Source of the DNA: Candidatus Heimdallarchaeota archaeon
GTDB taxonomy: Archaea; Asgardarchaeota; Heimdallarchaeia; Heimdallarchaeales; Heimdallarchaeaceae
Assembly (NCBI GenBank): GCA_030668825.1
Contig: DAOVET010000022.1
Span: 1-37,609 of the forward strand
Length of the DNA stretch: 37,609 nucleotides
Direction of reading: 5' to 3'
Shown: piece by piece, positions 2,975 through 22,538 of the stretch
Layout of the letters: every line of letters starts with the position of its first letter
Numbering within the stretch: position 1 is the first letter of the stretch
The notes under the pieces: generated by a model
Told to the model about the DNA's origin: nothing
The model's input: only the letters and a program-made list of their open reading frames with translations
The model's database searches: none
Position numbers and translations under genes: made by a program

Positions 2975-4993
2975 ATGATTGATTTTAAGAATCTCATCAA
3001 GAACAATTATTCGGAACTCATTTTGTTTAGTGTAATTTTCTTGTTCTTCTTTCAAATGCTTTCAGATCTAGGTGAACGAATTTACAATTATGCTCTACTC
3101 GGATTGGAACCAACATTGCATATTCTCGCATTATTATTCTTGTTTTCCTCTATAGCTCTGCTCTTCTTTAGAAAAGCAATATCTGATAAGATTTTGTTTA
3201 TTGCGGGAGAGTTAATCATTGTATCAAGATTAATTGAACCATTACTCAAAGGAGAAGCTTTACTTATATTAGCCGGATTGTCTGTTAGTAGTTTCCTTAT
3301 TTTCTTTCCTGCATATTTCACAAGAAGCAAGAACAAAGAACAACAAACTGGGATAACACTAGGAGTATCATTAGCCATAGCTGTAGCAATGTCAATTCTA
3401 TTCAGAACAGTTAACTCTACAATAGATGTCTCGATATATAATTGGTTTCAGATAATTGGTTGGGTTCTAGGAATACTAGCTACACTTATGTTGGTTGGAA
3501 TGTTATTGCAAGGCGAAAAATCCGATCAGAAAAAAACAACTACTGAAGAAAGTCCAGCAAAATTCGGAAAAATTCTTCTTCTAGCTCTTGGTTTGTCAAG
3601 TGTATTCATAGTCATATGGTTTACATTCATAAGTCCTACAGTGATTTCGAGATGGACAGAAGGTAACTATATTGGTATTATTGTTGGAGTCTTAGTAATG
3701 TTAACTTTGTTCATTGTAGGAATGATTTTAAAACCTGACCTAATGAACGCAATTAAATCGTGGATGCTTTGGGCATGGAATGGACTTTTCGCAGTCTCTC
3801 TAACATTGACTGTAATGATACATCAAATTATACCCAATTATGGTTTATTCTTCCCTGATAATCCAGCAGCATACCCAATTGTTGCCATACCAACGACTTT
3901 GGCTCATCACATCCCTTTAGTCCTGATGATTCTACTTTCTCCTATAATTTACATAGATTTTATTCTTTTATCAAGAGAATTACTAAAAATAAAACCAAAG
4001 CCAGCAAAGGTAGGTGGAGGTTTTGCTTTAGGTGCAGGACTGTACATGTTAATTATGATCTTTATGCAAGTATTACCTAATGTCTGGGGATATCTTAGAC
4101 CAATTAGTACTGGATTCAGAGATTTATACTGGTTAGCTTTCCTAATTCCAGGTTTATTCGTTACTTTACCTATCATCCTAGTCAAGAAAAATACTATGAA
4201 ATTTGAAAAGACGGTTAGAGAACTTAAATCGAAATCCATAATTCTTATAATATTAGGGTTGATATTTCTAGGGACAGTGGTAGGAGCTCTTGTTACAAAT
4301 CCTCATCCAGGCACACCAGATGAAGAGAAAACTTCTCTAATAATCATGACTTACAATATTAGGGAAGGTGTAAACAACTCTGGTGAAAAGAATTATGATG
4401 GACAATTGGAACTGATAAGAAGTGTTGACCCTGATATTCTTGCTTTGCAGGAATGCGATCCTGCCAGAATTGGTGGAGGTAATTCCGATGTTGTTAGATA
4501 TTTTGCGAATAAATTAAATATGTTTTCTTACAGGGGACCTAAAACGGTTGCAAACACCTATGGTACAGCTATTCTATCTAAATATCCAATTACTAATGTT
4601 GCAGCTTTCTTTATGTTTAGTACACATCAACAGATAGGAACGACACAAACACAGATTACATTTAGTTCAACTCTTACATTCAATGTTTTCTCAAACCATC
4701 CTGCTGCAAAAACTCCAGAAGCAAAAGTTTACCAAATTGAAGAAATACTAAGTCGTACAGTAGGTCTAGAAAACGTTTTATTGATGGGAGATTTCAATTT
4801 TAAGCCTTACTCAGAATCATATAACATAACTGTAGCTACATTAGAAGATTCTTGGGAACAAAAATGGTTATCAGTAGCAGCAACTAGAATCGATCACATT
4901 TTCCTGAGTCCAGGAATGACTGTTCTTGATGCTGTATATATAGAAAAGGGTCATTCAGATCATCCTGCATATTGGATTGAAATTCAACTGTAA
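2975..4993 (+). CDS. Polytopic membrane protein with C-terminal endonuclease/exonuclease/phosphatase (EEP) domain, Cwh43/PGAP2IP-like
   Basis: About 12-13 hydrophobic segments, followed by EEP motifs MTYNI, PDILALQE, ILSKYPI, LMGDFN, RIDHIF and SDHPA. Confidence 0.8.
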   Translation: MIDFKNLIKNNYSELILFSVIFLFFFQMLSDLGERIYNYALLGLEPTLHILALLFLFSSIALLFFRKAISDKILFIAGELIIVSRLIEPLLKGEALLILAGLSVSSFLIFFPAYFTRSKNKEQQTGITLGVSLAIAVAMSILFRTVNSTIDVSIYNWFQIIGWVLGILATLMLVGMLLQGEKSDQKKTTTEESPAKFGKILLLALGLSSVFIVIWFTFISPTVISRWTEGNYIGIIVGVLVMLTLFIVGMILKPDLMNAIKSWMLWAWNGLFAVSLTLTVMIHQIIPNYGLFFPDNPAAYPIVAIPTTLAHHIPLVLMILLSPIIYIDFILLSRELLKIKPKPAKVGGGFALGAGLYMLIMIFMQVLPNVWGYLRPISTGFRDLYWLAFLIPGLFVTLPIILVKKNTMKFEKTVRELKSKSIILIILGLIFLGTVVGALVTNPHPGTPDEEKTSLIIMTYNIREGVNNSGEKNYDGQLELIRSVDPDILALQECDPARIGGGNSDVVRYFANKLNMFSYRGPKTVANTYGTAILSKYPITNVAAFFMFSTHQQIGTTQTQITFSSTLTFNVFSNHPAAKTPEAKVYQIEEILSRTVGLENVLLMGDFNFKPYSESYNITVATLEDSWEQKWLSVAATRIDHIFLSPGMTVLDAVYIEKGHSDHPAYWIEIQL

Positions 4994-5003
4994 TAGTTCT
5001 CTT

Positions 5004-6074
5004 TCAAACTTTTTTTCTTTTCTTACGTATAATTAAGTATGTAGTTGCACCTATAAGACTTAAAACTAAGAAGCCCCCTATAGAAGCTAAGGAAATTACT
5101 GTATAGTATAGATTATGATATTTTTGATATAAATCTAGACCATTTGTTACCGTTTCTTCTGAGAAAAGTTCTGATAATTTTATTCCTCGTTCTCCTTTTG
5201 ATAACTCTTCTGTTACATTGAAACTAACCTTCTCATTAAATTGTGAAGCAAAATAAATATGCATCATTTTGTTAACTGGATCACAAATATTGGAATAAGC
5301 TGTATATCCATCAATTTTTTCTACGTGAACAGCATCTAAGATTTCTTCAAAGTAATCAACTGTTATGTTATTTTCTGAATCTATCTCTTCTAATAATTCC
5401 GCAGCTTTCTCGTATCGAGGACATGGATATTTTCCATAATAACTTTCAGGGTTAGCACGGTTGAAATTAGTCTGAGCTAGATAACCATTTTCATCTATTT
5501 GTTGAGTAACTACAATTTCTCCACTTAAACCTGGGCTTAGAATAACAGAATCTCCATTTGCATCTGATAGGAATAACTGGAACCATAAACTTTCGAATTC
5601 GAATTTATTAACTAGTTCTATAGCTTCGCTAACGTTCGAACATTCTCTGAGTATCTTTCCCGATAACCAATCTTCTCCCATTTTATATGGTCTTTCGGGG
5701 TGCGAGTTCATGGGCATATCAGGAACAGCAGTTGAATCATAGCACAAACCTACTTCATTCATTCCTCCTTGAACACTAACATATGTATCTTGCCAATACC
5801 AGCCTAAAAAGACACATCCATATCCTGCAGAAGAATTAGGATATACAAAGACATAGCTACCTTCTGGATCATTCATCAAAGGATGATCCCCTGAAGCATC
5901 TTCACTATTCCCAAACAAGACTACTTCTCCAAATCTTGCAGAGAAATTTGTGCAGCTTGCTCCTTGAAATTCTGCAGCATTTTCAGATTGTATGTGATTT
6001 ACTGGAATTGTTATAAAAGACATAATTAGGAGAAATGTTATCGCAGTTTCTCTTTTGATTTTTTTCTCTTTCAT
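5004..6074 (-). CDS. Secreted, C-terminally anchored Ntn hydrolase (C45/choloylglycine hydrolase-like)
   Basis: Signal peptide, SCTNF (N-terminal Cys nucleophile), FGNSED, GGMNEVGL, QTNF, and a C-terminal TM with basic tail RKKRKK. Confidence 0.8.
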   Translation of the reverse strand: MKEKKIKRETAITFLLIMSFITIPVNHIQSENAAEFQGASCTNFSARFGEVVLFGNSEDASGDHPLMNDPEGSYVFVYPNSSAGYGCVFLGWYWQDTYVSVQGGMNEVGLCYDSTAVPDMPMNSHPERPYKMGEDWLSGKILRECSNVSEAIELVNKFEFESLWFQLFLSDANGDSVILSPGLSGEIVVTQQIDENGYLAQTNFNRANPESYYGKYPCPRYEKAAELLEEIDSENNITVDYFEEILDAVHVEKIDGYTAYSNICDPVNKMMHIYFASQFNEKVSFNVTEELSKGERGIKLSELFSEETVTNGLDLYQKYHNLYYTVISLASIGGFLVLSLIGATTYLIIRKKRKKV

Positions 6075-6206: not shown

Positions 6207-6890
6207 ATGAAGCGAAATTCAAAAGATAGTCATGAATTTATTACCTTTAAGCAACCAATTGTAAAAGTACTTAGAGAGAAAGAAGAACTTGAGCTCTACT
6301 ACAATTTTAAGTATGAACCAATAATCCGCGTATTAAGAGACAGTCCTTTAACTGTATCTGAAATTACTGAAAGATATAATGTGATCTCTGAAAAGAAGAG
6401 AAAAGAAGGAACGATTTATTTATTTCTCAAAGATCTGGAGAAAGGTGGGCTCATTGTTCAATCAGGTCAGCATGTATCTCTAAGAAAGAAAGAAGGAAAA
6501 ACTGTCTACTCTAGAACTCTCTATTCTAGATCTGCTAAGCTTATCTTTCCATCAGTATTGAATTCATATTATTGGAAAACCAAAAAGAGATTAAGAATTC
6601 TTGGAAATGTTAGTGATTTGTTTACTCTCTATACTAGAGACCAACAATCTTCCGTTGAGTGTCTTGGTGAACTTGTTTATGAGATTTATACAAACGCTGA
6701 TTTAAAAGTTGCAGAATTCTTTGAGGAATTCTCTGAGGATGTTTTTAAAATCATTGGTGACAAACCCTTCCAAGAACTCGATAGTATAATGACTATTTTT
6801 AGACTTTTAATGATTATTTTAGACCCATCTGTTTATGAAAAACAACTAAAAAAATGTCTTGGAAGCGATTCAAAAAATAAAAAGGATTAA
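6207..6890 (+). CDS. Winged helix-turn-helix transcriptional regulator (ArsR-like, Asgard-type)
   Basis: IIRVLRDSPLTVSEI...GTIYLFLKDLEKGGLI..LYSRSAK. TTTATATA at 6177-6184. Stop overlaps the next start (TAATG). Confidence 0.7.
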   Translation: MKRNSKDSHEFITFKQPIVKVLREKEELELYYNFKYEPIIRVLRDSPLTVSEITERYNVISEKKRKEGTIYLFLKDLEKGGLIVQSGQHVSLRKKEGKTVYSRTLYSRSAKLIFPSVLNSYYWKTKKRLRILGNVSDLFTLYTRDQQSSVECLGELVYEIYTNADLKVAEFFEEFSEDVFKIIGDKPFQELDSIMTIFRLLMIILDPSVYEKQLKKCLGSDSKNKKD

Positions 6891-7999
6891 TGTTTAAAAT
6901 GCTACGCTATAGAAATCTTAAAACAACTGTGTTTTTCATTCTTTCTATTCTTCTTATTACTAGTTCTTTTATCTCAAATTTATCGTACTCAGTTGCAATA
7001 AACTATGATGTATCAGGGGTTAATAATCAAATTACATCCTCTTGTACTATTTTCACAACAGTTATTGATGATACAGTCTTTTTTGGTAACAATGAGGATT
7101 ATAAACTGAATAATGCTTATAGATGGTATGTTCCAGCACAAAATGTTTCAACAACTTATTTTGGCGTTAAAGAGATCTATGGAGCCGTTTTCTTTGGATT
7201 TGATAATAATAATAACACAGATGTTGATAAATGGGAACAAGGAGGAATGAATGAATTTGGCTTATGTTATGATGGTAATGGTCTCCCAGATATTGAATTG
7301 AATCTAAATCAAAGTGCAATGTACCCTTATACTCCACATGCTTTAGCTCAAGTACTGTGGGATTGTAGAACTGTAGAGGAAGTAATTGCTTGGTATCTGA
7401 ATCATAAATGGGGTGGTACTTTTGGTGGACAAATTCATTATGCAGATAGTACAGGTGATGCAGTGGTGGTTAGTGTTAATGCAACAGGTCAATGGACTTT
7501 TACTAGAATTGATTCCACTTTTCTTGTTTCAACCAATTTTAATTTAGATAATGTTACACATGGACATTATCCTTGTTGGAGATATGATACTGCTACTCAA
7601 ATGTTAGGCGAGATTACTACTGAAGAAAATCTTAATGTTTCTAGATGTGCAAATGTACTTTATGAAGTCCATCAGGAAGGAACATATGCTACAAAATATA
7701 GCAACATTTGTGATCCTGTTAATCTTGAATTTTACTTCAACTCAGGTGAGAACTTCTTAGTTAGTGAAAAATTCAATTTAACTGATAAACTTGCTGAAAC
7801 AGGATCTTATGAAGAAAAAAGTAGTTTCTTAGGAGTGACTGGTAGAGATGGCGGCGTTTTAGTAAAAACTGAAAAGATTGACATACAATTTGAAACCGTT
7901 ACAGAAACTACTGATGAAACTTCTGGAATCCTTCTCCTAATTAGTGTTTTAAGTTTATTATCAACTGTATTTGTTTGTAATAAATTTAGAAAAAGGTAA
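6890..7999 (+). CDS. Secreted, C-terminally anchored Ntn hydrolase (paralog of 5004..6074)
   Basis: Signal peptide, SCTIF, FGNNED, GGMNEFGLCYD, STNF, YPCWRY, YSNICDPVN, Thr-rich linker, TM and KFRKR. Confidence 0.8.
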   Translation: MFKMLRYRNLKTTVFFILSILLITSSFISNLSYSVAINYDVSGVNNQITSSCTIFTTVIDDTVFFGNNEDYKLNNAYRWYVPAQNVSTTYFGVKEIYGAVFFGFDNNNNTDVDKWEQGGMNEFGLCYDGNGLPDIELNLNQSAMYPYTPHALAQVLWDCRTVEEVIAWYLNHKWGGTFGGQIHYADSTGDAVVVSVNATGQWTFTRIDSTFLVSTNFNLDNVTHGHYPCWRYDTATQMLGEITTEENLNVSRCANVLYEVHQEGTYATKYSNICDPVNLEFYFNSGENFLVSEKFNLTDKLAETGSYEEKSSFLGVTGRDGGVLVKTEKIDIQFETVTETTDETSGILLLISVLSLLSTVFVCNKFRKR

Positions 8000-8531: not shown

Positions 8532-9452
8532 ATGAAAATCAAATTTAACCTTAAAGAAGGTATTAACCATGTCTTCATACCAGTGTATGTAAATGATAAG
8601 GGCCCTTATAATTTCACTTTGGATACTGGAGCTCAAGCTACTACTTTATCTTCGACTTTGACTGAAGAATTAGGCTTGGAAACAAATGAACTCATTGGAG
8701 AAAAATATGAACCGCTAAAGAAAAAACGAAATTTAAAGCTAATTGAAGCTAACTTAAGGATAGGTACAGAAGACCTTATCACTGATGAAGTTTGGACGAT
8801 GGATCTTGGTTTTTCAACTAAAACAAGTGGTAAAAAGATAATTCACACTGCAGAAGTAGATGGTAAAAAGGTGATACGTGCTGAACATCCTAATATCCAA
8901 AAGATGATGAAAACCACTGAATCTGGCGAAAAGGTTATTCATACTACTGATGGTGTAATTGGTTATACTACCCTAAAGAACTACTTACTTTCTGTTAATT
9001 ATAGTACTAGAATCATGCAATTAATAAGAAATGATCAAGAATTCACAAATACTAGTCAAGATAAGATGCAGACGTTCGAATACATTGGAGATACTCATCT
9101 CGTTGGAATTCCAGTTTTAATAAATGAAGAAGGACCTTTTCCCTTTGTAGTTGACACTGGAGCTGGAGGAACTACAATTTCTAAGAATTTAAATGAGAAA
9201 ATGAATCTGCCTTTAAGTGATATTGTTGCTAAAGTTGTAGGTATTCATGGCGCACAAGAAACCCATATAGCGATTATAGATCATCTGACTGTTTCATCTA
9301 CTACCTATGATGATATTTATGCAGTTATAATAGAGGAAAGTATAATTGGTCCTAAATATAAGATAATTGAAAATGGTATTCTAGGTTACAATATATTCAA
9401 AGACCGCGAATTGATAATTGACTATCCTAATCAGACCTGTGCAATTATTTAG
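8532..9452 (+). CDS. Aspartic protease with two retropepsin-like domains
   Basis: FTLDTGA...DGVIGY and FVVDTGA...NGILGY. SD-like GAGG upstream. Confidence 0.85.
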   Translation: MKIKFNLKEGINHVFIPVYVNDKGPYNFTLDTGAQATTLSSTLTEELGLETNELIGEKYEPLKKKRNLKLIEANLRIGTEDLITDEVWTMDLGFSTKTSGKKIIHTAEVDGKKVIRAEHPNIQKMMKTTESGEKVIHTTDGVIGYTTLKNYLLSVNYSTRIMQLIRNDQEFTNTSQDKMQTFEYIGDTHLVGIPVLINEEGPFPFVVDTGAGGTTISKNLNEKMNLPLSDIVAKVVGIHGAQETHIAIIDHLTVSSTTYDDIYAVIIEESIIGPKYKIIENGILGYNIFKDRELIIDYPNQTCAII

Positions 9453-17418: not shown

Positions 17419-19251
17419 CTACTTTAACCCTAGTTCTATTATCTTTTCTTCAGAAGGGATTCCATTAACCCATCCTCTTAGTTCGTAATATTCTTCTTTC
17501 ATTGTATCTAAATCTACAGTTTGACCCTTTGAAGGACCTTCAGGCATTTTTTCTTCTAGCAATCTCTTCGGCAATGTATCATCTTTTCCTGTTATTCCAA
17601 ATTTGTTAATGATCATCCTCTCAAGATTAGTTATTCTTTCTCCTATTGTTAGAAGCTCATCTGAATCAACATCCCATCCTGTTACTGGACAGATCATCTC
17701 TGCATATTCATCTAATCCTAGAGCAAATGTAAGGAATAAACAGTTTACAGAAGAGTTAACGATACTGGTGAAATCTTGGAATATTTTGACCAATTCAGCT
17801 TTACCTTCAGTTGTAAATCTGTCTACATCTCCTAGTATTTCTGCTGCAATTGTGTAACCTGTAACATGACATCCTCCTCTGTTTCCAGTGGCATAATTGA
17901 GTCCTATTCCTTTGGCACCACGTGGATCATAAGCTGGCATTTCTAATCCTTTAACAGACATTGATAGATCTGGAGCACCATAATGTTGACACATTTTTCT
18001 AGACCCTTCTCCTATCCAAAAACCAAGTCCTTGTCGAAAAGCTGCCATCCATGTTAGTTCAACGACAGCATCAGCATTACCAAATCGCAGATCTATACCT
18101 TGAAGATCTTCCTCAGGTATCATACCTTTTTCATTCAATTCCATAGCTGCTGCAATAGAAGAGCCAACGCTTATAGTATCCATACCAAATATATCACAAT
18201 AGTGATTTGCTCTGATAACAGCTCCCATATCATTTATTGCTGTAGAACCACCTAAAGCCCAAATAGATTCATATTCTGGACCTTCTGTATATGTTATCTT
18301 ATAATTTCCTTTGTCAACCTTGGTTTTTCTTCCACATGCAACAACACATCCCCAACAGGGATGCTTATTTATTAGGTACTCTTCCGTTAAGGTTTCTCCT
18401 GAGATTTTCTCTGCTTCTGGATTAACACCTGTCTGCCAATTTCTAGTTGGAAGCATACCATTTTGATTGATAATGTTGACTAAAATAGCTGTACCATAAT
18501 TAGGTAAACTTTCTGCTGTAGTATGATGTTCCTTTAGTTTCTCAACATGTTCTTTAACTTTAAGATCAAACTCATCTGGCTTTGCTATAATTGGTTTATT
18601 ATTACCCTCAACAATAATAGCTTTCAAGTTTTTAGAGGCCATAACAGCTCCGAGTCCTGTTCTTCCAGTAGCTCTGTGTTCTTCATTCATAATAACTGCC
18701 AAAGGAACTAGATTCTCTGCTGCAGGTCCTATGCAAGAAACTCCTGCTCTCTTTTTATCATGTTTGTTCCTTAGATGACTTGAGGTCTCAACTGAATTCT
18801 TACCCCAAAGTTTTGTTGCATCATGAATTTCTACAGATCCATCTATAATAGAGATATATACGGGATTTTCAGCTTTACCTATAACTACAATACCATCATA
18901 TCCTGCAAATTTGAGTTTAGCTCCCCATCGACCTCCTGAATTACCTGAACCAATTGAACCTGTCAAAGGGGATTTTAATGCCATGACATGATGACGCCCA
19001 CTATTTGGAGACCTTGTTCCAGTAACTGGTCCTGTAGCAAAAATAAGCATGTTTTCAGAAGATAATGCATCAAAATCCTTGACATTAATGCCTTTTTCCT
19101 CAAGTTTACTGACATATTTCCATAAAAGATGAACTGCTATTCCTTTACCTCCCACAAATTGACGAAGTATATCTTCAGAAATCGAAAAATCTTTGAATTC
19201 TTTAAGAGTTAAATTAACTTTTAACCATTTATTCATGTAGCCAAATTCCAT
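17419..19251 (-). CDS. aor: Tungsten-dependent aldehyde:ferredoxin oxidoreductase
   Basis: KSPLTG, GRTGLGAVMASKNLKAI, CWGCVVAC, EGPEYE, DIFGMDTIS, YDPRG and NRGGCH. True start is probably ATG 19251 (MEFGYMNK, 610 aa). The track's extension to 19425 overlaps the divergent gene. Confidence 0.93.
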   Translation of the reverse strand: MEFGYMNKWLKVNLTLKEFKDFSISEDILRQFVGGKGIAVHLLWKYVSKLEEKGINVKDFDALSSENMLIFATGPVTGTRSPNSGRHHVMALKSPLTGSIGSGNSGGRWGAKLKFAGYDGIVVIGKAENPVYISIIDGSVEIHDATKLWGKNSVETSSHLRNKHDKKRAGVSCIGPAAENLVPLAVIMNEEHRATGRTGLGAVMASKNLKAIIVEGNNKPIIAKPDEFDLKVKEHVEKLKEHHTTAESLPNYGTAILVNIINQNGMLPTRNWQTGVNPEAEKISGETLTEEYLINKHPCWGCVVACGRKTKVDKGNYKITYTEGPEYESIWALGGSTAINDMGAVIRANHYCDIFGMDTISVGSSIAAAMELNEKGMIPEEDLQGIDLRFGNADAVVELTWMAAFRQGLGFWIGEGSRKMCQHYGAPDLSMSVKGLEMPAYDPRGAKGIGLNYATGNRGGCHVTGYTIAAEILGDVDRFTTEGKAELVKIFQDFTSIVNSSVNCLFLTFALGLDEYAEMICPVTGWDVDSDELLTIGERITNLERMIINKFGITGKDDTLPKRLLEEKMPEGPSKGQTVDLDTMKEEYYELRGWVNGIPSEEKIIELGLK

Positions 19252-19372
19252 TTTAATACACCTAGACTGTGAATTGTGATAGAAGTAACCTTTCAACAGA
19301 TATAAATCTATCTGCAAAAATAGCGTATTTCTACTAATAGTTATATTTTTTAAATTTGAACCTAAAAGCAGA

Positions 19373-20704
19373 ATGGTAATGTTGTCAGAATATCCAAAGC
19401 TTTTACAAGTTGAACCAACAAACAAATGTAATTATTCATGTTCGATGTGTCTTAATGCATTTGGAAATTCTGAAAACCATTTTCTTTCTTTAAAGAGTTT
19501 TCAGTCACTAGCTGAAGAAATCTTTCCAAATCTAGATAAGCTTGTACTATATGGATTTGGAGAACCTCTAATACATCCTGATTTCATAGAAATGTTAGAG
19601 ATATCAAGAAAATATTTACCCCCAGAAAGTATAGTCTCATTTACGACTAATGGGTCACTACTCAATAAGAATAAAGTTGATGCTATAGTTGATAGACATC
19701 TAGCAGATGAGATTGTTTTTTCCTGCGACATGTTATTAAATAACAAAATAAAACCTGAGCTTCATTCCTTAGAAAATGAGAATGTAGAAGCAAATTTAAG
19801 ATATCTAATTGAAAGAAACGCAAACAAGAAAGTTCGAATAGGGATTCAATCTGTTCTAATGAAATCCAATGTTAATCAGATTGAGGGTATTATTTCCAAA
19901 TTTGGATCAATGGGAATTGATTTCATAGCATTAAGTCATCTTTTTCCATTCTTTGATAATTTACAGGAAGAAGTTCTATTCACTATGATATCACAAGAAG
20001 CATTATCAATATTGAAAGAAAATAGTAATCAGTGGAAAGAGATAATTCTTGGTGTATCCAAAGAAAAATTCGCAGAGAAAATGCAGGAAACATATAAACA
20101 ATTATACAAAAATAAGGCGAATATCAAACCTAAAATTAGACCTTTTTCTGAAATCTATGGGAAAGCTCAAGCAAAAGCAAAAGAAAAAAATGTCCATCTT
20201 AATATTTCATTATACATCAAGGAAAAAGATAGACTCAAAGCCTTATATGAACTAGAGAAACTTTTCAAAAAGTTTAGTAATATTGCAGAAGAAAGAGATA
20301 TTGAGTTGATTTTACCTGCAATTTTTCCAAAATTCTCCGATAGAAAATGCCCATTTCAGACAGCAAATGCTTCTGTTATTAGATCAGATGGAAATGTTGT
20401 TCCTTGCTTCAAATATTTATGGGATCATGAATCATATCTAAATAATCATGTAAGAAAAAACTCTTCATTTACATTCGGAAATATACATCAGAAGCCTTTT
20501 CTAGAAATATGGAAAAGTGAACAATATCTTAAATTTCGCTTAAAAATAGCAGAAATGAATAAATCTATCCCTTATTGTGGTGATTGTAGTTTATCAAGCA
20601 ATAACTGTTTTTATGCTATAGAAGATACATCTGATTGCTGGGGAAATATGCCATTTTGTTCTGAATGTCCTTATAGCTTAAATCTCACTAAATGCATAAT
20701 ATAG
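19373..20704 (+). CDS. Radical SAM/SPASM protein, tungsten-cofactor oxidoreductase maturase (Cmo-like)
   Basis: CNYSCSMC, YGFGEP, TTNG and a Cys-rich SPASM tail (CPF, VPC, CGDC, NC, DCWG, PFCSECPY). Divergent from aor. Confidence 0.8.
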   Translation: MVMLSEYPKLLQVEPTNKCNYSCSMCLNAFGNSENHFLSLKSFQSLAEEIFPNLDKLVLYGFGEPLIHPDFIEMLEISRKYLPPESIVSFTTNGSLLNKNKVDAIVDRHLADEIVFSCDMLLNNKIKPELHSLENENVEANLRYLIERNANKKVRIGIQSVLMKSNVNQIEGIISKFGSMGIDFIALSHLFPFFDNLQEEVLFTMISQEALSILKENSNQWKEIILGVSKEKFAEKMQETYKQLYKNKANIKPKIRPFSEIYGKAQAKAKEKNVHLNISLYIKEKDRLKALYELEKLFKKFSNIAEERDIELILPAIFPKFSDRKCPFQTANASVIRSDGNVVPCFKYLWDHESYLNNHVRKNSSFTFGNIHQKPFLEIWKSEQYLKFRLKIAEMNKSIPYCGDCSLSSNNCFYAIEDTSDCWGNMPFCSECPYSLNLTKCII

Positions 20705-21230: not shown

Positions 21231-22538
21231 TTAGTTGAAATATTCTAATGTTTTCTTACGTGCGTCATTTATTACCTCTTCTGGGAATTCCTCGAACACG
21301 AAATCAAGTACTTTGATGGCTTTAGAATCCAATTCAATGGCTTGATCTTTTTCTTCTTTCGTTCTGAATTGAGCCCTTGTAGTCATTTTGATAAGAGCTA
21401 AGAACATATTCTCCAAAAAACCAAAAAAAGTAGTATTTCCTTCGACAAAAGGTCTGGAAAATTCTAGATAGAATCCTAAAACTTGAGGATTAAGATCTAA
21501 AGTATTAGGTTCATCAAAAACATGAAAAGGAAAGGCATTTCCTAGCCCACCATCAACGATATAATTCACTGGGTGTTCTTTATTAAAGACTGACTTAAAC
21601 TCTCCATCCACAATACACATGCTAACTGGCTTGAAGATTATAGGAATGCTAATAGACATTCGAATAGCATCTGCAACACACAAATCTTTCCACCGTTCAT
21701 TATTTCTAAAGTAATAGGTTTCATTTGCAGCAACATCGAATCCTGTGACTACTAAATCAATCTGGAACTCTTCTTGAAACTGTTTGAAGGTACAATTCTT
21801 AATTCCTGATTTAACCTCTATGTAGTTATCAATTAAGTTCCTGAATTTTTCAGCTAAAAAGAAACCATATTCATATCTCAAACTACTAAAACTCTCTGTA
21901 GGACTACCCAAGATCATATCCATTGCAGTTTTAATTGTTTTATTATGTACGAGTTCAGGAACAGAGGGAATAATTCCATGCTTAGGAATATCTTCAACAT
22001 CAGTTTTTCTAGCCTCATAGTAAACATACCCTTTGAAGAGAGTAGCTAAGAACTTAAAGTTAAGTTGTGTAAGATATTTTCCAGGTATTTTTATTAAATC
22101 ACCAAAAGTCTTTTTCTCAGATTCAACAAATGCTTTCATGTACTTATCCACTAGAAGTTGATCTTTTTCTGTAGCTGGATTGTTAATAACACTTGTAGGA
22201 TTATCTTTTGTATAGATTGTTGGAATTCTATCAAATTCTACGGTATCTAATAAATTTTCACTATAATCACTTTTTACGATTTCCTCTACTTCATTTGATG
22301 TATATCCACAGGAAATTAAAAGTGCAGTAATTGAACCTACTGAGGTACCTGAAATCCCATAAATTTTTTCAGGATTAAGACGAAAAACTTGTACTCCATT
22401 GATCTCTTTTTTCACATAAGAAACAATTTCTAGTTCCTCCAAAGCTTGAAGCGCTCCTACGTAGGTAACACCTTTTCCGCCTCCTCCTTCAAAAGCGAGA
22501 AATCTTATATTTTCTTTTGATACCTTCATACAATACAT
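21231..22538 (-). CDS. Patatin-like phospholipase
   Basis: FEGGGGKG, GTSVG nucleophile, DAIRMSISIP and VDGG. Confidence 0.9.
   Translation of the reverse strand: MYCMKVSKENIRFLAFEGGGGKGVTYVGALQALEELEIVSYVKKEINGVQVFRLNPEKIYGISGTSVGSITALLISCGYTSNEVEEIVKSDYSENLLDTVEFDRIPTIYTKDNPTSVINNPATEKDQLLVDKYMKAFVESEKKTFGDLIKIPGKYLTQLNFKFLATLFKGYVYYEARKTDVEDIPKHGIIPSVPELVHNKTIKTAMDMILGSPTESFSSLRYEYGFFLAEKFRNLIDNYIEVKSGIKNCTFKQFQEEFQIDLVVTGFDVAANETYYFRNNERWKDLCVADAIRMSISIPIIFKPVSMCIVDGEFKSVFNKEHPVNYIVDGGLGNAFPFHVFDEPNTLDLNPQVLGFYLEFSRPFVEGNTTFFGFLENMFLALIKMTTRAQFRTKEEKDQAIELDSKAIKVLDFVFEEFPEEVINDARKKTLEYFN

Follow-up and report, generated by a model that had tools for sequence, protein, structure and literature searches.

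A predicted distant, full-length relative of PGAP2IP/Cwh43 in a Heimdallarchaeota archaeon, on a branch shared with bacteria

Whether Asgard archaea possess relatives of the enzymes that remodel the lipid of eukaryotic glycosylphosphatidylinositol (GPI) anchors is a question raised by one gene of a Candidatus Heimdallarchaeota archaeon. The gene lies at 2975..4993 of contig DAOVET010000022.1 (assembly GCA_030668825.1), whose 37,609 nucleotides, analysed as a whole, are called the window here. Its product is labelled P0001. An earlier note, made from the letters of the window, read the product as a Cwh43/PGAP2IP-like membrane enzyme, related to the eukaryotic GPI remodelase, and, together with neighbouring surface proteins, as a candidate part of a GPI-like anchor processing system. 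Cwh43 is described as replacing the diacylglycerol or phosphatidic acid part of GPI with ceramide (PMC4962981). Sequence comparisons show P0001 to be related to PGAP2IP (gene CWH43) and Cwh43 over its full length, genuinely though remotely, and to lie on a branch shared with bacteria.

Relationship of P0001 to PGAP2IP and Cwh43

The open reading frame (ORF) is intact, starts with ATG and fills exactly this interval of the forward strand, encoding 672 aa plus a stop codon. A chance ORF is ruled out because 537 database proteins match P0001 at E <= 0.001, and the best 120 of these are near-full-length (about 440-720 aa), share 41-100 % identity with it and all carry both PF03372 and PF23226. The family is under purifying maintenance, and G+C near the gene (0.32-0.35) is the same as in the remaining window (0.31-0.36). 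Two sequencing runs of doubtful RNA status gave one short contig each (266 nt and 165 nt), which is no evidence either way on expression. As the earlier note had observed, the product joins a membrane part, for which that note counted about 12-13 transmembrane (TM) segments and the structure model gives 13 membrane-length helices, to a C-terminal endonuclease/exonuclease/phosphatase (EEP) domain.

The EEP half matches PGAP2IP directly. P0001 scores 78.8 bits against the general EEP model PF03372 (gathering score 24.5; residues 458-663, profile positions 1-225 of 225) and 58.5 bits against PF23226, the 'PGAP2IP C-terminal nuclease-like domain' (cut-off 27; residues 458-620, profile positions 7-171 of 239); the general model outscores the specific one. 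Pfam scans covered 72 of the 87 members of the family alignment, and PF23226 was matched by all 72. The segment PDILALQ...SKYPI (residues 486-539, nt 4430-4591), which the earlier note likened to yeast Cwh43, was compared here only by way of the Pfam PGAP2IP models. The canonical GDFN, DH and SDH residues named in the same note are all found, in MGDFNF, RIDHIF and HSDHPA. Across the 87-member alignment five residues (N461, E493, H575, N608 and H663) never vary, and four others (D495, D606, D640 and D662) are conserved at 90 % or more; P0001 has the full EEP catalytic and metal-binding set (N461, E493, H575, D606/N608, D640 and D662/H663). A fold search of the PDB with the whole structure model returned EEP enzymes only (TMq <= 0.28), among them 4ruw, TDP2, 3mpr, nocturnin and the mannosyl-6-phosphatase 4c1r, and a sequence-profile search of the PDB returned the same set.

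The membrane half is linked to PGAP2IP through a second Asgard family. Pfam describes PGAP2IP by PF23022 (first 6-TM unit), PF23021 (second 6-TM unit) and PF23226 (EEP), each with a cut-off of 27 bits. PF23021 is reached by 15 of the 72 relatives at E <= 10 and by 13 of 71 at E <= 0.1, always below the cut-off (best 26.1 bits). These sub-threshold matches are colinear, placing protein residues ~313-398 on profile positions ~98-176 of 181. PF23022 is matched by one of the 72 (E 0.064), and no other membrane family by more than three. In 201 Asgard genomes, PF23021 gave three matches above its cut-off. The second family, family B, has the architecture of P0001 at 600-660 aa and shares its TM1, SPxxIxRW and VYDYxP...FR motifs; unlike P0001, it passes all three PGAP2IP models, and at ~25-28 % identity it forms a separate clade (support 100). 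For PF23022, PF23021 and PF23226, respectively, its full-length members P0299 (630 aa) and P0300 (658 aa), which account for two of those three matches, score 42.2/83.1/109.4 and 28.7/64.4/100.1 bits.

Family A, to which P0001 belongs, aligns with P0299 end to end in hhalign (probability 100, E 5.5e-41, 594 columns). The membrane parts on their own give 97.2 % and E 4.2e-11 over 314 colinear columns covering helices 1-11; this alignment begins at P0001 residue 25, opposite family-B residue 37, where the PF23022 match starts, and ends at residue 384. A reversed target gave 0.2 %, eight column shuffles at most 1.0 %, and eight shuffles of 25-column blocks at most 44.9 %. Because the TM-only alignment is strong against these controls and family B passes all three PGAP2IP models, the P0001 membrane domain is, on profile comparison, homologous to the PGAP2IP type by transitivity through family B.

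The relationship claimed in the earlier note is thus borne out for both halves: for the EEP domain by PF23226, and for the membrane region, where that note had allowed that homology to PGAP2IP might be lacking, by the alignment to family B. A special closeness to eukaryotes is not supported. Neither PF23021 nor PF23022 matches P0001, its family is common to bacteria, and family B fits the eukaryotic type better. Judged from Pfam-model scores only, family B stands nearer to the eukaryotic enzyme than P0001 does. In the ESM Atlas, which offers a lead and not a test, PGAP2IP models occur in 100 % of the members of the fungal Cwh43 clusters, and prokaryotic clusters have EEP models only.

In P0001 the EEP domain comes after two 6-helix TM units, the order seen also in PGAP2IP and in fungal Cwh43 over its C-terminal two-thirds. 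At ~670 aa it is similar in length to mammalian PGAP2IP, which has ~700 aa. It differs from both eukaryotic proteins in leaving unmatched the PF23021 and PF23022 models that they carry. The Frag1/PGAP2 module, fused in fungi and separate in mammals, was not found in its genome by a model that was silent in the control genomes too, and its archaeal host is without an endoplasmic reticulum (ER) and without a detected GPI pathway.

Distribution and branching of families A and B

Named matches to P0001 are annotated 'endonuclease/exonuclease/phosphatase family protein' and come from Heimdallarchaeaceae (93 % identical), Hodarchaeota, Loki-/Promethearchaeota and Odinarchaeota; the 93 %-identical proteins agree with the Asgard host that the earlier note had proposed. 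An exhaustive search of 1.84 billion representatives gave 2384 matches at E <= 0.001, of which 204 reach E <= 1e-30. No eukaryote-named protein was present in the best 150 of these 2384 matches, nor among the matches listed for whole P0001, for P0299, or for a 21-sequence profile of the C-terminal 420 aa (proteins >735 aa). Of 201 Asgard genomes sampled, 82 match P0001 at E <= 1e-10 and 52 at E <= 1e-85, and the stricter threshold is reached in 19 of the 21 other genomes of its own family. The genome of P0001, which is 90.6 % complete, has two family-A copies, P0001 and a 59 %-identical paralogue on contig 12. With the 28 %-identical P0240 as query, 28 loci were retrieved, mostly from Chloroflexota (Anaerolineae), with three from Verrucomicrobiota and one Spirochaetes record. 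By these sequence matches, family A is a separate branch common to Asgard archaea, Chloroflexota, Verrucomicrobiota and Spirochaetota.

Family B comprises P0299, P0300 and P0301-P0314, from sources named Kariarchaeaceae, Hodarchaeota and Promethearchaeota. It is rare, with 21 matching clusters, ~15 of them close, in 5.8 billion proteins. The genes of P0299 (L034:949-2841, G111:C285) and P0300 (L035:907-2883, G178:C375) belong to hosts of another family of the same order as the host of P0001. Both genomes are without a strong family-A match, their best hits to P0001 (E 3.6e-16 and 8.6e-19) being the family-B gene itself. Conversely, family B was not found in the genome of P0001, where P0299 retrieves only the two family-A genes (25-28 % identity).

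Both sets of trees are prokaryotic, with Asgard family-A, bacterial and family-B rows. A 69-row tree was made by a quick IQ-TREE run with posterior mean site frequencies (PMSF), after two fragments <520 aa and one locus without a match had been dropped. In this tree the 22 Asgard family-A rows form one clade (Shimodaira-Hasegawa-like approximate likelihood ratio test, SH-aLRT, 100) and the 15 family-B rows another (100); P0001 is sister to its own paralogue (support 100). Seen from family B, Asgard family A is nested in a bacterial grade with supports of 90-99. Trees of a chosen 30-row subset (10 Asgard family-A, 14 bacterial and 6 family-B rows; six unlabelled rows omitted) put all bacteria on one side of a branch with support 97 (LG+G4) or 94 (PMSF), and leave the monophyly of Asgard family A unsupported. 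Because the 30-row trees contradict the 69-row tree on the rooting of family A, we make no claim as to whether Asgard archaea or bacteria were the donors.

Other forms were met in the Asgard genomes. A third group of ~650-713 aa frames, with only 25-26 % identity to P0001 over most of the length, includes G099:C233:2501-4324, G077:C178:6367-8115, G121:C60:17702-19540, G147:C4:181474-183183, G003:C38:13323-15134 and G136:C13:14586-15875. Three members have one in-frame TAA, and the G136:C13 member lies ~1.2 kb upstream of a family-A gene on the same contig. In other Asgard families there are apparent split forms, in which a 400-444 aa PF23021 ORF (16.6-29.2 bits) is followed immediately on the same strand by a separate EEP ORF of ~190-390 aa (G131:C22:38260-39410(-), G027:C7:46151-47223(+), G176:C21:43884-45031(+) and G106:C26:6754-8156(+)).

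Predicted fold and reaction of P0001

The AlphaFold2 model, built from 87 homologues (mean predicted local distance difference test score, pLDDT, 94.0; predicted template modelling score, pTM, 0.95), places helices 1-7 at residues 14-43, 48-64, 71-90, 93-117, 122-146, 156-183 and 197-218, and helices 8-13 at 232-252, 262-283, 309-339, 343-366, 387-402 and 420-441, followed by an alpha/beta domain at 454-672. Residues 1-442 were also folded alone (pLDDT 81.6, pTM 0.88), since searches with the whole model returned only EEP matches. This part matches major facilitator superfamily (MFS) transporters exclusively: the fold matches span model residues 5-409 at 7-14 % identity, and the Foldseek top 50 are likewise all MFS (E from 1e-4). 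The membrane domain has the 12-helix, two-lobed MFS fold. Because residues 1-442 have no structural matches other than MFS transporters, helices 1-12 of the model are best described as an MFS-like two-lobed bundle and helix 13 as a linker. In Pfam, no MFS family is matched by P0001 (E <= 10), and none is among the 25 families listed for the 72 relatives.

With the N-terminus inside, the inner loops have 19 lysine or arginine (K/R) residues in 65 and the outer loops 5 in 85. Helix 13 is preceded by a K/R-rich cytoplasmic loop (403-419, 6 K/R). Because K/R concentrate in the inner loops, the EEP domain is predicted to be extracellular, topologically equivalent to the ER-lumen side. The best-conserved membrane residues, Y37, R144, D151, P221, R226, W227, Y373 and R382, would then lie at outer helix ends and loops. 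P221, R226 and W227 of SPTVISRWTEGNY are invariant or nearly so, and this loop aligns to 'SNYGIIPRW' of family B. Y373 and R382 of NVWGYLRPISTGFRDLYW are nearly invariant; the loop aligns to 'ATVYDYVPLGELFRE' of P0299 and is the best-conserved link to the second PGAP2IP TM domain, the sub-threshold PF23021 matches being centred there. A further conserved motif, FFFQxxSDxxExIY (residues 24-37), lies in TM1 and has the polar residues Q27, D30 and E33. The features are collected in Table 1.

Table 1. Features of the P0001 gene and its downstream neighbours, in window coordinates
Feature	Residues	Position	Strand	Basis
Whole gene: MFS-fold membrane domain, 13th TM helix, predicted extracellular EEP domain		2975..4993	+	ORF call, model, 537 homologues
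TM helices 1-6, MFS-like N-lobe, counterpart of Pfam '6TM_1st_PGAP2IP'	14-183	3014..3523	+	models, hhalign
TM helices 7-12, MFS-like C-lobe, counterpart of Pfam '6TM_2nd_PGAP2IP'	197-402	3563..4180	+	PF23021 sub-threshold matches, hhalign
Predicted outer-face loop motif SPTVISRWTEGNY	220-232	3632..3670	+	conservation, charge-based topology
Predicted outer-face loop NVWGYLRPISTGFRDLYW, family consensus FTTVYDYIPxVGPxFRD	369-386	4079..4132	+	conservation, alignment
13th TM helix, predicted to carry the chain outside	420-441	4232..4297	+	model, charge count
EEP domain, predicted extracellular	454-672	4334..4990	+	PF03372, PF23226, PDB sequence/fold matches, positive-inside count
TYNIREG, metal-binding N461; R463 here vs family NIQQG	459-465	4349..4369	+	alignment, motif positions
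LQECD, catalytic E493 and D495	491-495	4445..4459	+	alignment, motif positions
MGDFNF, D606 and N608	604-609	4784..4801	+	alignment, motif positions
RIDHIF, D640	638-643	4886..4903	+	alignment, motif positions
HSDHPA, D662 and catalytic H663	660-665	4952..4969	+	alignment, motif positions
C45/AAT-like (PF03417) protein		5004-6074	-	
PadR-like regulator		6207-6890	+	
Second C45/AAT-like (PF03417) protein		6890-7999	+	

P0001 probably works as a stand-alone enzyme, integral to the membrane and belonging to a prokaryotic family that is sister to PGAP2IP/Cwh43; it would act as a lipid head-group phosphodiesterase or transferase at the outer face of the membrane. We give this reading moderate confidence. 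Twelve helices would form the MFS-transporter-like bundle and helix 13 would lead the chain out of the cell. There the metal-dependent and catalytically intact EEP domain would sit above the outer face of the bundle. The MFS-like domain may bind, and perhaps translocate, a membrane lipid or a lipid-linked glycan, whose head-group phosphodiester the EEP domain would cut or transfer at the outer leaflet, in the manner of a phospholipase C or sphingomyelinase. The EEP domain would either hydrolyse the bond or, as is proposed for Cwh43 on GPI lipids, pass the group on to the hydroxyl of an acceptor. What the analysis establishes, and this explanation builds on, is the architecture and fold of P0001, its complete set of catalytic residues and the homology of both halves to the PGAP2IP type.

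The known enzymes nearest to this proposal agree with P0001 in part. Sphingomyelinase C/beta-hemolysin and the neutral sphingomyelinases have the same catalytic fold, beta-hemolysin being a weak sequence match (E 3e-4), and cleave a lipid head-group phosphodiester at the membrane surface, the chemistry proposed for P0001. They are, however, soluble or peripherally anchored, have no polytopic MFS-like domain, and are similar at the superfamily level only. MFS transporters, including the lipid-handling LtaA and Spns1, differ from P0001 in that P0001 has an extra 13th helix, a fused catalytic domain and conservation concentrated at the outer face. A 2023 study describes an EEP cluster that contains Cwh43p, PGAP2IP and the N-acetylglucosamine (GlcNAc)-6-phosphodiester hydrolase GlcNAc-PDase, and also an unstudied 'Asgard/Chloroflexus group' of different size and domain organisation (PMC10704324). 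Family A and this group are compared here by the mix of taxa and the shared PF23226 match only, and agree in both. GlcNAc-PDases share with the P0001 EEP domain a metal-dependent phosphodiester hydrolysis, which is predicted for P0001; the characterised ones, as far as described there, are soluble, secreted proteins of 219-357 aa acting on GlcNAc-6-phosphocholine or -ethanolamine, whereas P0001 has a 13-helix membrane domain (PMC10704324).

Several points weigh against the proposed reading. P0001 itself matches neither PF23021 nor PF23022 at E <= 10. Charge bias is the sole basis of the topology, the substrate assignment is inferred, and the EEP active site is assumed to face the bundle. The MFS fold reveals no function, and the domain may instead transport a solute or just serve as a scaffold. 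No pathway is hinted at by the neighbours, since no neighbour family occurs in more than four of 49 loci (21 Asgard, 28 bacterial) with 3-4 kb flanks. Finally, the specificity of the P0001 orthologue group may differ from that of the rest of the family, because NIQQG, present in 92-93 % of the wider family, is replaced after the metal-binding Asn by NIR[E/L/Q]G in 25 of 25 sequences of this group. In the co-resident paralogue group NIQQG, or a motif close to it, is retained, and 25 of 27 sequences have the first Q.

A bolder extension would take the membrane domain throughout the PGAP2IP/Cwh43 family to be an MFS transporter that handles lipids and is fused to an EEP domain resembling phospholipase C. 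The eukaryotic remodelase would descend from an Asgard MFS-EEP fusion. In present-day Asgard archaea the enzymes of families A and B would flip archaeal phospholipids with inositol or sugar head groups and exchange those head groups at the outer leaflet; the lipids concerned might be the ones that anchor surface proteins. Taken as one joint claim, this is doubtful, and we consider it quite improbable.

Competing readings, genomic surroundings and significance

The complete 12-helix MFS fold and the conserved polar TM1 residues would also suit a scavenging fusion. Its outer EEP domain would break down phosphodiesters outside the cell or on its surface, for instance glycerophosphodiesters or, as GlcNAc-PDase does, those of phosphocholine or phosphoethanolamine carried by glycans, and its MFS part would import the product. 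Characterised enzymes of the same EEP cluster do act on sugar-phosphodiesters (PMC10704324). In longer relatives, P0272-P0297 (746-1260 aa; the named ones bacterial), an EEP domain of the PGAP2IP type is joined to a type-I phosphodiesterase domain (PF01663), and three of them carry glycosyltransferase domains too; for this kind of EEP domain such fusions suggest a chemistry of glycoconjugates or phospho-sugars. Import is possible but unlikely, however: the most conserved residues of the TM domain are at the outer face and not mid-membrane, no Pfam MFS family is matched, and the eukaryotic homologues are implicated in lipid remodelling and not in transport (PMC4962981). That P0001 is a nuclease anchored in the membrane, serving the breakdown or uptake of nucleic acid from outside the cell, is extremely unlikely. 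EEP is the fold of apurinic/apyrimidinic (AP) endonucleases, DNase I and TDP2, and TDP2 and the LINE-1 endonuclease rank high in the whole-model fold search, but the NCBIfam exodeoxyribonuclease III match is weak (20.6 bits, far under its cut-off of 99), and the PGAP2IP-specific model beats the general one in many members (102.9 vs 51.1 bits in P0127, for example). The published clustering puts the group beside sphingomyelinases, not nucleases (PMC10704324), and a mere anchor would not need a conserved 12-helix domain.

The reading closest to the earlier note makes P0001 a functional Cwh43 equivalent: Asgard surface proteins, its C-terminally anchored neighbours among them, would have a GPI-like anchor whose lipid it remodels. 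In its favour are the full-length homology to the PGAP2IP architecture, the predicted outside position of the EEP domain, topologically like the ER lumen, and a 2026 report that GPI-anchor synthesis is Asgard-derived (PMC12872458). CWH43, PGAP2IP and PGAP2 do not, however, appear in the main text or three supplements of that paper, one further PDF supplement being unreadable. The single C13-peptidase match in the genome (40.6 bits) can also be counted for this reading, but it covers profile positions 111-188 only, and the family is widespread. The surroundings of the gene speak against it. A DUF1697 gene lies upstream, and a C45/AAT-like gene, a PadR-like regulator and a second C45/AAT-like gene follow downstream. 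The C45/AAT-like pair are the 'C-terminally sorted' proteins of the earlier note and are not conserved beside the EEP gene elsewhere; even within the genus the neighbours are unconserved, and at 12 other Heimdall loci none of them is present again in the 1.5 kb next to the gene. Frag1/PGAP2 (PF10277, E <= 0.01), PIG-U and PIG-M were not found in the genome, a weak negative because these models are silent in all control genomes too. An exosortase/archaeosortase-family (PF09721) ORF of 414 aa is present at G000:C65:1209-2132(+) (L098/L099; 27.1 and 21.3 bits, 43 summed); such a gene is the conventional explanation, and the usual sorting route, for C-terminally sorted surface proteins. Family A also occurs in Chloroflexota, Verrucomicrobiota and Spirochaetota, and the search of this genome did not find family B, which resembles PGAP2IP more closely. 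A functional Cwh43 equivalent is therefore very improbable here, and nothing supports the local GPI-like anchoring system that the earlier note had proposed.

Some other features of the window are recorded here. The two C45/AAT-like proteins are 34 % identical paralogues placed around the PadR-like regulator, and each has an N-terminal hydrophobic segment, a C-terminal TM helix and a basic tail. A 306-aa protein at 8532-9452(+) has two retropepsin-like aspartyl-protease domains (PF13650, two stretches). The ORFs of an aldehyde:ferredoxin oxidoreductase (17419-19425(-)) and a radical-SAM/SPASM protein (19373-20704(+)) overlap by 53 nt at their called 5' ends, probably through an overlong TTG start call. 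A patatin-like phospholipase (PF01734, 77 bits) at 21231-22538(-), a lipid-acting protein, lies 16 kb from the EEP gene.

The EEP-level link to Cwh43/PGAP2IP is already in print and in Pfam's precomputed annotation. In the literature searched, the membrane-domain homology, the MFS fold and the two Asgard families were not found described, and lipid presentation or flipping coupled to head-group cleavage was not found stated for CWH43. P0001 itself is of moderate importance, its branch being shared with bacteria and the idea of Asgard GPI-like anchoring gaining no support from it. PGAP2IP/Cwh43 is among the least understood enzymes of GPI-anchor maturation, and the role of its EEP domain is called 'still vague' in PMC10704324. 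For this enzyme, the MFS-like fold suggests a concrete mechanism in which lipid presentation or flipping would be coupled to head-group cleavage. Its prokaryotic full-length relatives are tractable, intron-free proteins for structure and enzymology, and a comparison of the two Asgard families, which lie unequally far from the eukaryotic type, could be of use in dating the origin of GPI lipid remodelling.

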